A stretch of DNA of 56,854 nucleotides from Limisphaerales bacterium (GCA_044225505.1 JBGAIN010000001.1:145642-202495), one strand, 5' to 3'; positions 19,175-55,268 are shown, numbered from the stretch's first letter. The notes: generated from the letters alone by a model not told the origin. Numbers and translations: made by a program.

Positions 19175-21058
19175 ATGAAATCGTTTGCTCGAATCCTTTT
19201 CAATTGCCTAGCCGCCATTTTCGTTGTCTGGGGTGGTGGAGTTCAGGCTCAGCTCGCTATCACTGAAGTCATGTCTTCGGCTTCCACGAATCTTGGTCCA
19301 GCCGCCGTCACCCAGAATTCAGATTTTTGGGAGTTGACCAACTTCGGGACAAACGCGGTTAATCTCACCGGGTACAAGTTCGACGATGCGGACAACAATC
19401 TTGCGGCGGCCGATCCAACCCCTTTCGATGGACTTTCGATTGGCCCGGGCGAGTCCATCGTATTTGTCCAAAACACCGTAAACACCAATGAGTCTTCTTT
19501 TCGGGAATGGTGGGGAACCAACCTGGCGAGCGGGGTCAGGATCGTCTTCTATTCCGGCAACGGCCTTTCGTCGGGAGGCGATGGGATCAGGCTCTGGGCG
19601 CCCACCGCGCAAAGTGTGAGTGACGTGGTGGATAGTGTCGATTTCGGTGAAGCTCATCGGGGCTCGTCGTTTACCTATTCCCTAGTGACAGGCGAATTCG
19701 GAGTGCTGAGCACCAATGCGATCGACGGGGCATTCAAAGCTGCGACGACGGACGATGTGGGTTCGCCTGGGCGCACACCGGGTCCGACGCCTCTTACCAT
19801 CCTGCAACAACCGGTAGACAAAGTGGTCAACCCAGGTGACGCGACCAGCTTCGCAGTGACTGTGCTGGGCCGCCCGCGTGGAACGTTTCAGTGGTATTTT
19901 GAGGATACTCCCATCCTTGGAGCCACCAACGCCACGCTGCAGATTACGAACGTGCAAGAGTTATCTGCTGGTCCTTATCGCGTTGGAATCAACAACGGAA
20001 TCACGAGCACGCAGAGCGTTTCCGCGACCTTGGTTCTGGCCTCGGAAGCCACTCCTCCCACTTTCACACTCGTTCCGGCGGACCTCAGTATCTACCTTGG
20101 GCAGAGTTTCACCTTTGCCGCCGCGGCGACAGGTGTGCCTCAACCGACCTATCAGTGGCAGAAGGAAGGGACCGACCTCGACACCGGCACGAGCTCGCAA
20201 TGGACTCTAACCGGAGTGACCGAGCAAGACACGGGTCTTTACGCAATCATCGCCAAGAACGCCGTGGGCGCCGTCACCAACAAGTTTCAGGTAACCGTGA
20301 CGCCGAAACCTCAGCTTGTGATCACCGAGGTCATGTCCAGTTCGTCGACGAACGTCTCGGGACATCAAGATTGGTGGGAACTCACCAACCTCGGAACGTC
20401 TCCAGCCAATCTGAAAGGACTTCGCTTCGACGATAACAGCGAGACTCTTAGTTCCGCATTTGCTTTCACAAACAATGTCACCCTTGCCAGCGGTGAGTCC
20501 GTCGTTTTCGTCGAACAGATGACCCCAGAAGAGTTCCGTGATTGGTGGGGCTCGGAACATTTGCTGCCCGGACTTAAGATTCTCACGTACCGAGGCAACG
20601 GGCTAAGTTCGGTCGGAGATGCTGTCAACGTGTGGAACGCGGCCGCGAGTGAGGATTCGGATAAGCTCGCGAGTGCTGTTTTTTCCACCGCAACGGCCGG
20701 CGTCACGTTTGGCTATAATCCAGAGACGGGCACATTCGGCGAACTCAGCATCGATGGGACAAACGGCGCTTTCACTGCGGCGTCCGGCGGAGATGTCGGG
20801 TCCCCGGGATACATCCGCAACTCGCAGCGAGTCTTCCTGCCGCGGATTCGGGAGATTACGATCTCCGGGACTAACATCCGGCTGAGGTGGAGCTCGCAAG
20901 TGGGGACCCGCTACCAAATTCAATTCAAAGCGCAACTCGGCGATGCCACGTGGACCACTGAAAAGGAAGTTGCCGCCGCGGGCGACGTCACCAGTTCCGA
21001 GCAACCCCTCAACACCGCGGCGGGCCAGCGTTTCTATCGCGTCGTGGCCTCGCCGTAG
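19175..21058 (+). CDS. Secreted protein: lamin-tail domain - 2x Ig-like - lamin-tail domain - C-terminal FYR domain
   Basis: Signal peptide; two ITEVMSS..N..D.WELTN.G...GES.VF repeats; two Ig I-set-like units (G.P...FQW, G.P.PTYQW.K); ends [10 protein letters not shown]. Confidence 0.85.
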
Positions 21059-21068
21059 GAAGGCCTGC

Positions 21069-21830
21069 ATGAGACGGTGCGCGTTTACGTTGATCGAACT
21101 CCTGGTGGTCATCGCGATCATCGCGATCTTAGCCGCAATGCTCCTGCCCGCCTTGGGCCGTGCGAAAGAAGCCGCCAGAAGAACCGCGTGTCTCAATAAC
21201 CAGAGACAATGGGGTCTGGCTCTGACTCTCTATACGCAGGAAAATGACGAAAAAGTGCCGCGCGAAAGTCATGGAACCAGCAGCACACTGAATAACTGGG
21301 CGCAAGTGCGTGATCCGAACAACCGGGACATCTGGTACAATGCGTTGCCCCGGACAATCGGCCTGCGCGCAGCCGACGATTTGGCCACCAACGTAGCGAC
21401 GTTCTACGCCAAAGGATCCCTCTTTCACTGCCCGAGCGCCAAGTTTCCCAAGGGCTATTTGACGGGCAACAATGCCCTTTTCTCGATCGCCATGAACTCT
21501 AAACTCATTTCCGATGGAGTCTCGGTCCGAGCTACCGCTATCCTTTCGCCATCGTCAACAGTCGTCTTTCTCGAAAACCTCCTGAAGGATGAGACGCCGT
21601 TTGATCCGGCCCAAGCGACCACGGAACTGGGCCAACCCAGCAGCTTTGCTAGTCGCTTCTCGGCCCGGCATGCCCAATCCGGCAACTTAGTCTTCATCGA
21701 CGGGCATGCCGAATCTCTCCGGGGCAACCAGGTGGTCGAAACCCGTCCGGGTCCCAATCGAGGCAAGGCCATCGTCCCTCAAGTGCGAATCATCTGGACT
21801 CCTAATCCGGAAACGGACCCAAACAAGTAG
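21069..21830 (+). CDS. Prepilin-type N-terminal cleavage/methylation protein with H-X9-DG motif
   Basis: [52 protein letters not shown]. Confidence 0.9.
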
Positions 21831-21933
21831 TGCTGGAGGGAAGTCGCACGCCTTGTCGTCGAAGAGCAGAAAATCCTCATCCGAGAATCTGCCCGCCCGG
21901 AATGGCGGCCGGCAGACCAGCGCACGAGAGAGA

Positions 21934-21967
21934 TTGACAATTAGACGAGAGGTGTGCATATACACAC
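21934..21967 (+). promoter_or_regulatory. Sigma70-type promoter (TTGACA -35) overlapped by the palindromic operator GTGTGCATATACACAC
   Basis: TTGACA at 21934; an imperfect palindrome at 21952-21967 covers the -10 position, 4 nt before ATG 21972. Confidence 0.65.
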
Positions 21968-21971
21968 GGTG

Positions 21972-22409
21972 ATGGCTGATGAGATTGATTTGTCGTCCAT
22001 GGAAAACTGCGTGTGCTTCAATCTGCGCTGGGTATCGCGCGCTATCACGCAGTTCTTCGTTGCCGAACTTCAACGGCACGGATTACTGCCGACGCAAACG
22101 CCAATCCTAGCCGCGCTTTTATCAAACTCGAACGCAAGCATGGCCGAACTGAGCGATTGGCTGGGAATGGATCGTACCACCCTGGTAAGGAATCTTCGTC
22201 CTTTGGAGCGAGACGGCCTGGTCAAGGCTAACAGCAAGGGCCGCGGCAACAAGGTCAGCCTGTCGCTAACACCCAAGGGGCGGGCTGCGCTGAAAAGGTT
22301 TTTGCCGGACTGGCAGGTGGCGCAGCAGAAAGTAGTGGACACCCTTGGCTCGGAGCGTTGGGCGGAAATTCTTCGCGACCTGGAACAAGCGGCATCGAAA
22401 CTGAACTGA
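21972..22409 (+). CDS. MarR-family transcriptional regulator
   Basis: CVCFNLR..SRAITQ, LGMDRTTLVRNL.PLERDGLV, LTPKG. Confidence 0.9.
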   Translation: MADEIDLSSMENCVCFNLRWVSRAITQFFVAELQRHGLLPTQTPILAALLSNSNASMAELSDWLGMDRTTLVRNLRPLERDGLVKANSKGRGNKVSLSLTPKGRAALKRFLPDWQVAQQKVVDTLGSERWAEILRDLEQAASKLN

Positions 22410-53868: not shown

Positions 53869-53904
53869 GGTCTCAGGGGTTTTAATAAAAGCCTGCACAC
53901 GCTG

Positions 53905-53932
53905 ACCACGTTCTGACGAGGCCGAATTTAAC
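53905..53932 (-). promoter_or_regulatory. Putative autoregulatory ECF promoter GTTAAA-N10-TCAGAACGTGGT
   Basis: Mirror copy at 54032-54059 on the plus strand. Confidence 0.7.
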
Positions 53933-54031
53933 ACGATCGGGCAGGGAGCTTTCGACGAGTTCGGTGCTGGATAGGCCAATCCAATGGAAGTCCACACGAT
54001 TGCCGACCGTTCGAAATTCGGTGAACAATCC

Positions 54032-54059
54032 GTTAAAATGATCGAGTTCAGACCGTGGT
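54032..54059 (+). promoter_or_regulatory. Putative ECF promoter GTTAAA-N10-TCAGACCGTGGT upstream of the FGE-domain gene
   Basis: gttaaa atgatcgagt tcagaccgtggt. Confidence 0.7.
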
Positions 54060-54095
54060 AGGAGCGTGGATTCAACACGCTTAAAACTCACCAAA

Positions 54096-55268
54096 ATGAT
54101 AATTATCTCAGAAAGAACAGCAAATAACCTAGCCCTCGCTGCTTGCGGGTTTGCGCTTCTGCAAAGCGTCGCCTCATCCTCTGCGCAGCCCGTTATCGAA
54201 AGCATCGCCATGGTCCCCCGACTGGCCGTCACAAGCGCCTCGGCGACAGTGGATACAATCCAATACAAGACGGATCTGAATCAGACGAATTGGCTCGTCT
54301 TGACAAACCTAGCCGTGGCGCAAAGCCCCTATTGGTTTGTCGATACCGACGCAACGCGGTCCACGCAGCGATACTATCGCGTGCTGGAAGCATCTTTGCC
54401 AACGGGAATGGTTCTTATACCCACCGGGTCATTCACGATGGGTGACACGCTGGATGGTGAAACGGATGCACTCCCGACCCACACCGTTAACGTCAGTGCG
54501 TTTTACGTGGATAAAACGTTGGTGACCTATGCGCTCTGGCAGCAGGTCTACGATTGGGCGACAAGCCACGGCTATGGGTTCGACAATCCTGGAATGGGCA
54601 AAGCCCCCGACCAACCGGTGAACACCCTGAGCTGGTATGACGCCGTGAAGTGGTGCAATGCACGATCCGAGATGGAAGGGCTTTCACTCTGCTATTTTAC
54701 GACAGCGAGCCATCTGACTGTTTACCGCAGCGGACGAACCAACTTGGAGAATTCCTTCGTAAATTGGATCGCCACGGGCTACCGCCTGCCAACCGAAGCT
54801 GAATGGGAAAAGGCAGCACGCGGCGGAGCTTCTGGCCGTCGCTTCCCCTGGGGGGACGTGGACACGATCAATTGGAGCAGAGCAAACTACTCTGCTAATC
54901 CTTCCGTTTACCATTATGACGCCAGTCCCAGTGACGGTCCAAATCCTCTCTTTAATGACGGAACCGAACCGTACACGAATCCGGTTGGATATTTTTCGCC
55001 CAACGGGTACGGGTTGTATGACGCGACTGGCAACGTGGCTAACTTGTGTTGGGACGTGTACGCGGGTTATAGCAGCGGAGCCCAGACGGATCCAAGAGGA
55101 CCTTCGGCAGGAGTCGACCGAGTCGTCCGTGGTGGAACTTGGTGCTGTGGGCCGGACCGCTCGTCCGAGCAGTGCCGCTGCGCAAGACGCGACCACCTGG
55201 GTAGCGATCCCGCGAATGCTTTCGGTTACGGCCTCGGATTTCGCTGCGTTCGAGCGGCCATCCAGTAA
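54096..55268 (+). CDS. Secreted FGE-sulfatase (SUMF1 / C-type-lectin fold) domain protein with an N-terminal YYR domain
   Basis: Signal peptide; MV.IP.G.F.MG, P...+SW.DA..WCN, YRLPTEAEWEKAARGG, PNGYGLYD..GNV, RV.RGG.W, GFRCVR. Confidence 0.9.
   Translation: MIIISERTANNLALAACGFALLQSVASSSAQPVIESIAMVPRLAVTSASATVDTIQYKTDLNQTNWLVLTNLAVAQSPYWFVDTDATRSTQRYYRVLEASLPTGMVLIPTGSFTMGDTLDGETDALPTHTVNVSAFYVDKTLVTYALWQQVYDWATSHGYGFDNPGMGKAPDQPVNTLSWYDAVKWCNARSEMEGLSLCYFTTASHLTVYRSGRTNLENSFVNWIATGYRLPTEAEWEKAARGGASGRRFPWGDVDTINWSRANYSANPSVYHYDASPSDGPNPLFNDGTEPYTNPVGYFSPNGYGLYDATGNVANLCWDVYAGYSSGAQTDPRGPSAGVDRVVRGGTWCCGPDRSSEQCRCARRDHLGSDPANAFGYGLGFRCVRAAIQ

Follow-up and report, generated by a model that had tools for sequence, protein, structure and literature searches.

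Three described systems offer precedents for the one considered here. The T9SS (type IX secretion system) C-terminal domain (CTD) is a small immunoglobulin (Ig)-like sandwich that dimerises via strand swapping (PMC4804311), the Fn3 domain of Pel3 carries a key determinant for its secretion through the T2SS (type II secretion system) (PMC7949064), and the FnIII domain of CbsA provides a precedent for a removable export aid (PMC9190976). Here we describe a domain of about 65 residues shared by five proteins that are encoded in a 56,854-nucleotide stretch, called the window below, of a Limisphaerales bacterium genome (GCA_044225505.1 JBGAIN010000001.1:145642-202495). A preliminary description of the window had noticed the shared segment, with its closing FYR motif, and had proposed it as a sorting or surface-anchoring signal. 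We find that the domain belongs to a very large nameless family centred on Verrucomicrobiota, that it is modelled as a compact variant of the fibronectin type III (FN3) fold, and that it may, on a tentative reading, serve as a docking or retention module after Sec export.

The five carrier genes and their copies of the domain are listed below. Positions are counted from the first letter of the window, and bit scores are those against a profile built without the window contig.

19175..21058, + strand: exported-protein gene with two LTD domains and Ig (I-set) domains, then the shared domain (open reading frame (ORF), translation, Pfam LTD/I-set)
20831..21055, + strand: shared domain, C-terminal copy of the LTD/Ig protein (51.2 bits; ...RLRW...YQIQFKAQL...W...)
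24086..25612, - strand: exported 'CBM-like' protein gene with no Pfam family and an internal duplication, shared domain last (ORF, translation, Pfam)
24089..24310, - strand: shared domain, C-terminal copy of the 'CBM-like' protein (27.7 bits; domain E-value 2e-7; ...TLKW...YAVDY...W...RGFLRVRPTN)
38881..41535, + strand: subtilase gene with Peptidase_S8, Big_5 and a weak PPC match, shared domain last (ORF, translation, Pfam)
41308..41532, + strand: shared domain, C-terminal copy of the S8 peptidase (20.8 bits; E 1.8e-9 with the profile of alignment A1; ...IISW...LLEATELL...W...SRFYRLRRP)
45809..48883, - strand: LVIVD-repeat beta-propeller protein gene, divergent shared domain last (ORF, translation, Pfam, NCBIfam)
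45812..46006, - strand: shared domain, divergent C-terminal copy of the LVIVD protein (13.8 bits; ...HLSW...LQRA...DW...NGFFRLKSH)
54066..55268, + strand: exported FGE-sulfatase-domain protein gene, shared domain N-terminal (ORF, translation, Pfam)
54180..54392, + strand: shared domain, N-terminal copy of the FGE-sulfatase protein, residues 47-117 (34.7 bits; E 3.5e-16 with the A1 profile; ...IQYKTDL...NW...QRYYRVLEA)

The shared segment makes up the final 65-75 residues in four of the five carriers, and the four C-terminal segments quoted in the preliminary description are all present where it had placed them. The fifth carrier, which it had counted without naming, is the FGE-sulfatase protein, in which the signal peptide is followed by the shared domain and then by the FGE-sulfatase domain; the count of five was correct, and C-terminal placement holds for four only. 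No copy was found in window ORFs beyond these five. Inspection of the five translations agreed with the claim of signal-peptide-like N-termini on all carriers, the S8 peptidase being the least typical; the probable start of the 'CBM-like' protein is the Met at ~25519, just ahead of its signal peptide. Pfam and NCBIfam account for the passenger parts of the window carriers and leave the shared segment uncovered. The 'CBM-like' carrier (24086-25612, - strand) is itself without a Pfam or NCBIfam family; its translation holds two similar units of ~190 amino acids (aa), each with ...SxYTKAGADDIxVTxGxxxLKxDF....

The segment was traced through the source genome (9.04 Mb, 342 contigs, 95% complete), with its six-frame ORFs of at least 60 aa as the search space. 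A profile of the five segments matched 29 ORFs at E ≤ 1e-3, that is, the 5 seeds and 24 new ones, and iterated searching converged on 260 copies in 252 ORFs. With a profile from other contigs only, the window copies scored 51.2, 34.7 (FGE-sulfatase), 27.7, 20.8 and 13.8 bits (LVIVD); among 5000 shuffled C-termini of 75 aa the highest score was 9.5 bits. The weakest member, and a divergent one, is the LVIVD copy: its domain E-value against the whole six-frame ORF set is 0.29-0.31 and a blind genome-wide search would miss it, yet it lies above the shuffled controls and has both the motif and the placement. The profile consensus, ...LRLSW...Y.LE.S.DL..W.......F.D....RFYRL (full form GGGLRLSWPGAPGRSYRLESSTDLGSGTWTPLATVTATGGTVEFTDPLAAGGAARFYRLR), matches the motif first described, (L/I)xW ... 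W ... terminal (F/Y)(Y/F/L)R(V/L). The family and structure work drew on 25 aligned segments, the five window copies plus 20 taken from other parts of the genome; the LTD/Ig copy is the first sequence in alignment A1 and is the copy modelled by AlphaFold2. Together, the independent profile, set against shuffles, and the genome-wide convergence show that the segments form a single significant family, and confirm that the segment is a genuine ~65-aa domain common to five unrelated exported proteins.

No Pfam or NCBIfam entry matched the domain at a meaningful level in the five proteins or the 25 segments, so the database check proposed in the preliminary description found no model that covers it. 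The commonest Pfam near-match was F5_F8_type_C_2 (PF22633), in 6 of the 25 segments with a best E of 0.014, and a profile search of PDB sequences gave weak matches only, to CBM32 chitosan-binding modules (2rv9, E 2.2e-4, ~53 residues). PF00041 (fn3) matched none of the 25 segments even at E ≤ 10 and none of the five window proteins, while fn3_SORL1 matched one segment at E 0.099. Among the families listed for the five proteins and for the 25 segments there was no T9SS tail model of NCBIfam or Pfam. Dockerin (PF00404) had no match on the 25 segments, and the model of the domain is all-beta. PPC (PF04151) was likewise absent from them; the S8 protein and two other carriers, L034 and L049, have PPC matches that fall outside the terminal domain. 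Within the open full-text library searched, no description of the domain was found.

The AlphaFold2 model made from the alignment is all-beta with six strands (pLDDT 93, pTM 0.79), in agreement with the beta-rich module of the preliminary description; its statement that the domain has no transmembrane helix also stands, as the domain contains no hydrophobic helix. A structural search against representatives placed FN3 domains at the top (1cfb, Z 7.8, root-mean-square deviation 2.5, 71 of 75 residues aligned), although Z values of 7-8 are, by the tool's own remark, the level typical of models without a clear relative; Foldseek found nothing in the PDB at E ≤ 1e-3. From the sequence and the DSSP string, the strands are probably A, B (LxLxW), C (Y.LE.S), C' (W...), E and F (RFYR). 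The chain then ends quickly. The tail after [FY][FY]R measures 4-7 aa in 168 of 209 C-terminal copies, 188 of 200 tails open with L, V, A or I, and a chain that stops 4-7 residues past this motif therefore has no G strand. This is no truncation, because the ~68-75-aa periods of tandem arrays in other organisms leave no space for a further strand and because a model of a protein with three tandem copies gives each repeat six strands, or five in the first, which is cut at its N terminus, and no seventh (pLDDT 77, single sequence). The models thus describe a six-stranded FN3-like beta-sandwich (A, B, C, C', E, F) that ends after the RFYR strand and lacks the G strand. Donor-strand complementation, in which a partner would supply a G strand, was considered and rejected: the ~70-aa array periods and the six-strand repeat models indicate a domain that is complete.

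So generic a fold, with no outstanding structural match, invites the reading that the domain is an ordinary extracellular beta-sandwich, acting as a ligand or glycan binder, a spacer or a stabilising cap, that has no sorting or anchoring role and came to be C-terminal merely through gene growth. The weak CBM32/discoidin likeness (2rv9 and PF22633, above) and the label 'cadherin-like' given to one relative by its source fit such a module. We regard it as somewhat unlikely, in part because of the strongly conserved RFYR strand, which lies at the free edge and in a modelled interface (below). Should it be true, the domain would still be a compact six-stranded FN3 variant relevant to fold classification.

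Placement within the carriers is strongly biased. In the source genome 209 of the 260 copies (80%) finish no more than 12 aa before the stop. Another 31 start in the open frame's first 150 codons, directly behind a signal-peptide-like stretch, and 20 are located elsewhere, which makes 51 non-C-terminal copies overall. The C-terminal tag of the preliminary description accordingly holds for four-fifths of the copies and fails for these 51 and for the arrays of other genomes. Single-copy relatives found by a word-indexed search carry the domain C-terminally in 100 of 109 cases, and among the 142 multi-copy relatives within the top 150 the last copy abuts the C terminus in 114. Linker and repeat domains are usually internal, so that an ordinary sandwich sits poorly with ~80% of copies, and the last units of arrays, abutting the stop with a tail of constrained length; copies at both protein ends and inside the chain suit it better.

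The same bias argues for a signal that directs translocation or sorting at the outer membrane, whereby a lineage-specific machine, like that reading the T9SS CTD but unrelated to it, would recognise the folded C-terminal sandwich in the periplasm and export or attach the cargo. The extreme C-terminal position here and in both sets of relatives, the tail of mostly 4-7 aa after FYR, and the two precedents of the T9SS CTD and the Pel3 Fn3 domain (PMC4804311 and PMC7949064) all accord with it. The 51 non-C-terminal copies, 31 of them N-terminal, do not, and we consider this reading unlikely. Still less probable is a third one, in which the domain assists export or acts as an intramolecular chaperone and is removed once the protein is secreted, comparable to the PPC domains that end secreted peptidases or to the FnIII at the C terminus of Xanthomonas CbsA. 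Placement is mostly C-terminal, and two window carriers and several others are peptidases, both points in its favour. N-terminal copies are a misfit for a removable aid, however, PPC is also present in some carriers, and no upstream linker or cleavage motif was found: the preceding 40 aa are not low-complexity and show no conserved cleavage-like linker. Directly before the terminal domain, several carriers (L025, G000:C270:2825-5569, and others on C208, C78 and C310) have a TSP3/dockerin-like Ca-binding motif, DxDxDGxxNxxE...GTDPxDP; in L025 a Pfam TSP3_bac match covers residues 818-839.

Multiple copies are rare in the source genome, where 247 of the 252 ORFs hold one copy, two hold two and three hold three, and none consists of the domain only. 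Its sole array-like carriers are two adjacent ORFs of 2304 and 669 aa at C27:33099-41269 (- strand), each with three variant copies ending in FFQV or FFRG and with Thr/Pro-rich linkers between copies. In other organisms copies are strung head to tail at a period of ~68-75 aa, with short Pro-rich linkers in between, the largest array counting 21 copies by our analysis profile, and proteins made of the domain only also exist in other genomes. Arrays of this length resemble adhesin stalks, as an ordinary structural module might form. Arrays and domain-only proteins also fit neither a removable export aid nor a sorting signal well; together with the N-terminal and internal copies, they count against a translocation signal that is C-terminal and processed, of the T9SS or sortase type.

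The family is abundant. Of 1.84 billion cluster representatives scanned, 61,251 matched at E ≤ 1e-3; this number falls to 4,225 at a limit of 1e-10 and to 102 at 1e-30. The few source names among the relatives are all Verrucomicrobia, Verrucomicrobiae, Limisphaerales or Pedosphaera; the best three ESM Atlas clusters are from Verrucomicrobiota wherever a phylum is recorded, and the 30 nearest have no Pfam family in common. Among genomes of the same order 20 of 21 were positive, each with between 37 and 149 matches when no more than 150 candidates were scored in a genome, and an even sample of the phylum gave 56 positive genomes of 121, with between 1 and 45 matches under a limit of 48 scored in each. 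The exception within the order, G020 (2.6 Mb, 94% complete), has zero copies, whereas the similar-sized G018 (2.8 Mb) has 37 matches. Besides Verrucomicrobiota one other phylum was sampled, Candidatus Hydrogenedentota, in which 5 of 41 genomes had 1-4 matches; in the two four-match genomes three or all four lie on one contig, and these copies may reflect mis-binning or gene transfer. The whole LTD protein used as a query found a single distant locus, also in Candidatus Hydrogenedentota, in a genome without a copy of the domain. The earlier label 'lineage-specific' thus suits a family centred on one phylum and rare in the one outgroup sampled.

The carriers appear to be exported and are otherwise diverse. 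A signal-peptide-like start was present in 173 of 226 testable carriers and in 663 of 1500 background ORFs. We surveyed the passengers of a random 40 of the 177 mid-sized carriers on contigs other than that of the window; 27 had a Pfam family at E ≤ 1e-5, and these families are mutually unrelated, in line with the unrelated passengers of exported carriers described for the window. They comprise TIG/DUF11, S8 peptidase (twice), FG-GAP, SpoIID, cyclophilin, LamG, PPC, FGE-sulfatase and the metallo-beta-lactamase fold, as well as LTD, PA14, CotH (twice), delta-60 propellers, cohesin, NHL, RCC1, DUF642 and others. In none of the 40 carriers did the best stretch of a surveyed Pfam family fall on the terminal domain. 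The last 8 residues of the domain are basic (mean +1.6) and the remainder of the carriers acidic. Hundreds of unrelated cargos per genome would suit a sorting signal, and the breadth of passengers, reaching past carbohydrate-active enzymes to proteases, cyclophilin, SpoIID, CotH and beta-propellers, tells against an ordinary binding or spacer module.

'Choice-of-anchor' families are named for members that end in different sorting signals across lineages. Two of the 40 surveyed carriers exceed the curated NCBIfam cut-off for such a family, CoaZ with 158.9 bits (cut-off 30) and choice-of-anchor C with 126.6 bits (cut-off 120), and the LVIVD protein of the window reaches 96.9 bits against choice-of-anchor B, just under the cut-off of 100. 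In these carriers the shared domain occupies the place of the sorting signal, a further point for that reading. Placement statistics, passenger diversity and choice-of-anchor passengers thus point together to a tag-like role.

Several known machineries and partners were sought. T9SS components SprA (TIGR04189), GldM (TIGR03517) and PorV (NF033710) had no match in the source genome; the SprA and GldM controls matched no genome and the PorV control gave one match below the cut-off. The FGE-sulfatase protein scored 104 bits against a GldK-like model (cut-off 350) and was rejected as a GldK, the score reflecting the common FGE-sulfatase fold alone. PEP-CTERM-like tails, defined by our regular expression, occur on 8 ORFs of the source genome, none of them a carrier; TIGR02595 (PEP-CTERM) gave no scored match, the model being too short to score and its control silent. 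A PEP-CTERM/exosortase substrate was therefore rejected, since the domain is without a hydrophobic helix and PEP-CTERM-like tails never stand on carriers, and the preliminary description had been right on this point. That such tails are few and never occur together with the domain is what a separate sorting signal would lead one to expect. Against a signal of that kind stands the failure to find machinery for it, SprA, GldM and PorV being unmatched, with the control limits just given.

The preliminary description had also linked the domain to neighbouring H-X9-DG proteins, a link that presence and absence do not sustain. Across 120 sampled genomes, the source genome excluded, both were present in 25, the domain only in 30, H-X9-DG only in 24 and neither in 41; chance would give both in 22.5 genomes, close to the 25 observed (overlap counted by hand). 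In one family H-X9-DG was found in 17 of 20 genomes and the domain in 2 of 20. H-X9-DG pseudopilins were accordingly rejected as a phyletic partner, presence being independent across the 120 genomes, with the proviso that the 22-position H-X9-DG model is insensitive. The lack of coupling is a further point against a dedicated sorting signal.

Self-association received some support from modelling. A homodimer of the domain scored 0.42, against 0.01 for the best of three controls. Of the proteins in the tool's calibration, 20 of 30 solved as pairs and 1 of 23 solved as single chains attain this mark; as the alignment used here was our own, these counts apply roughly only. The homodimer runs gave at least 100% contact agreement, with a partner pLDDT of at least 85. 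The modelled interface comprises residues 3-13 (the A strand), 16, 18, 21, 60, 62 and 65-71 (GQRFYRV). It lies on the A/F side, where the G strand of an FN3 domain would sit, and includes the most conserved motif. The model thus passes its controls and lends support to a possible self-pairing.

On this evidence we tentatively favour a docking or retention module that would act after Sec export. The carriers would be exported by Sec and the domain would then act in the envelope, where its open A/F edge, with the conserved RFYR strand, may pair with a second copy or with an envelope partner. Unrelated enzymes, proteases and adhesin-like proteins could in this way be held together or at the cell surface. 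Such a binding module is preferred because binding can work in any chain position, which a processed C-terminal signal cannot. In this form the sorting or anchoring module first proposed retains its tag-like placement, diverse exported carriers and choice-of-anchor passengers, features of architecture that suggest the role; it is weakened by the non-C-terminal copies, by arrays and by the failure to find machinery.

Several observations weigh against docking or retention. No partner, receptor, scaffold or machinery for the domain was found in the tests made. A cohesin-type scaffold is not evident in the source genome, since it has only five multi-copy ORFs and none that is domain-only. The dimer is a model, and pairing between the edge strands of beta-sandwiches comes easily in silico; conservation of the residues could be due to structure alone. 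The signal-peptide heuristic is crude, with a background rate of 44%, and supports a rough enrichment only. Finally, a plain binding module does not require the strong C-terminal bias and the narrow range of tail length, which are more in keeping with a signal. Taken together, we rank docking or retention first, followed by a plain binding or structural sandwich, an outer-membrane sorting signal and, last, a removable export aid. A bolder proposal, to which we give little credence, is that Verrucomicrobiota own an undescribed surface sorting or display system. In the order to which the source organism belongs, a G-strand-less FN3-like tag would mark ~40 to more than 150 cargos per genome, and its RFYR edge would be read by machinery or a scaffold.

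These results bear on how Verrucomicrobiota bring the very large numbers of enzymes and adhesin-like proteins that they secrete to the outer membrane or past it. A single genome has ~250 proteins marked by the domain, and public data contain protein clusters with it by the tens of thousands, without a Pfam or NCBIfam model. A family model alone would allow a large block of 'hypothetical' sequence to be annotated and would yield a candidate surface or secreted proteome for the phylum. If the domain is truly a docking or sorting tag, it would also help to trace the machinery that it works with and could serve these organisms as a portable display tag.

The surroundings of the carriers have some features of their own. 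Three cassettes of the window (2890-6911, 34152-38525 and 48934-54078) each combine an extracytoplasmic function (ECF)-type sigma factor, with Sigma70_r2 only, and a Ser/Thr kinase-WD40 protein of ~1050-1130 aa. They adjoin genes for exported proteins, namely a DUF1559 pilin-like protein and a GH43 protein, the S8 peptidase, and the LVIVD and FGE-sulfatase proteins. Genome-wide, 16 of 252 carriers lie within 3 kb of a sigma ORF (random mean 7.4, maximum 15) and 28 of 252 within 3 kb of a kinase ORF (random mean 13.4, maximum 23), about twice the random figure for both. At 26287-28320 (+ strand) a 677-aa ORF carries both a complete ECF sigma factor (regions 2 and 4) and three CarboxypepD_reg-like beta-sandwich domains; if this is a single gene, the fusion is an unusual one. 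Two prepilin-type features of the H-X9-DG class are also present:

6917-7810, + strand: prepilin-type gene (N_methyl and DUF1559, H-X9-DG class; window annotation)
20943-21830, + strand: prepilin-type ORF (N_methyl and DUF1559, H-X9-DG class), with the N_methyl motif at ORF residues 43-68

The second overlaps the 3' end of the LTD gene, and its true start is probably downstream.

Last, the domain can be set beside the systems it most resembles. With FN3 (PF00041; neuroglian 1cfb) it shares the fold class, the strand order A-B-C-C'-E-F, a Trp in strand B and an aromatic residue in the last strand; it differs in length (~65 against ~90 aa), in having six strands instead of seven (A, B, C, C', E, F, G) and in the absence of a PF00041 match. 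Two relatives, P0006 and P0134, have a canonical FN3 domain, read from sequence and with PF00041 on record for P0006, ahead of their arrays of the shared domain, which is therefore distinct from the PF00041 family. The CBM32 and F5/F8 type C modules (2rv9, 4zxe) have in common with it the pattern W ... Y.[IV]..S.D...W ... RY.R over ~53 residues (E 2.2e-4), but discoidin and CBM32 domains are jelly rolls of ~130-150 aa, and the matches are partial and below curated thresholds.

Resemblance to known tags is a matter of architecture. The type A CTD of the T9SS (RgpB) is likewise an Ig-like sandwich at the extreme C terminus of unrelated Sec-exported proteins, and the shared domain is, like the CTD, modelled as a dimer; the CTD has seven strands, not six, the shared domain matches no T9SS tail model, the phylum is different, and the domain also occurs N-terminally and in arrays, not as a single C-terminal copy. 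Dockerin/cohesin pairs, SLH domains and cell-wall-binding repeats offer the parallel of a small, mostly C-terminal, sometimes N-terminal or repeated module on unrelated secreted enzymes, which is how the shared domain is proposed to behave. Dockerin is a Ca-binding helical module, unlike the all-beta shared domain, and cohesin-like domains (PF00963) are present in some of its carriers. The Fn3 domain of Pel3/PelI (4u49, matched structurally at Z 6.6) is an FN3-type domain on a secreted enzyme, with loops that form part of the T2SS signal (PMC7949064); in Pel3 it stands at the N terminus, and it is a canonical Fn3 confined to a single enzyme family. What is new here is an FN3-like module placed as a terminal tag, and, if the reading favoured above is right, working as one.

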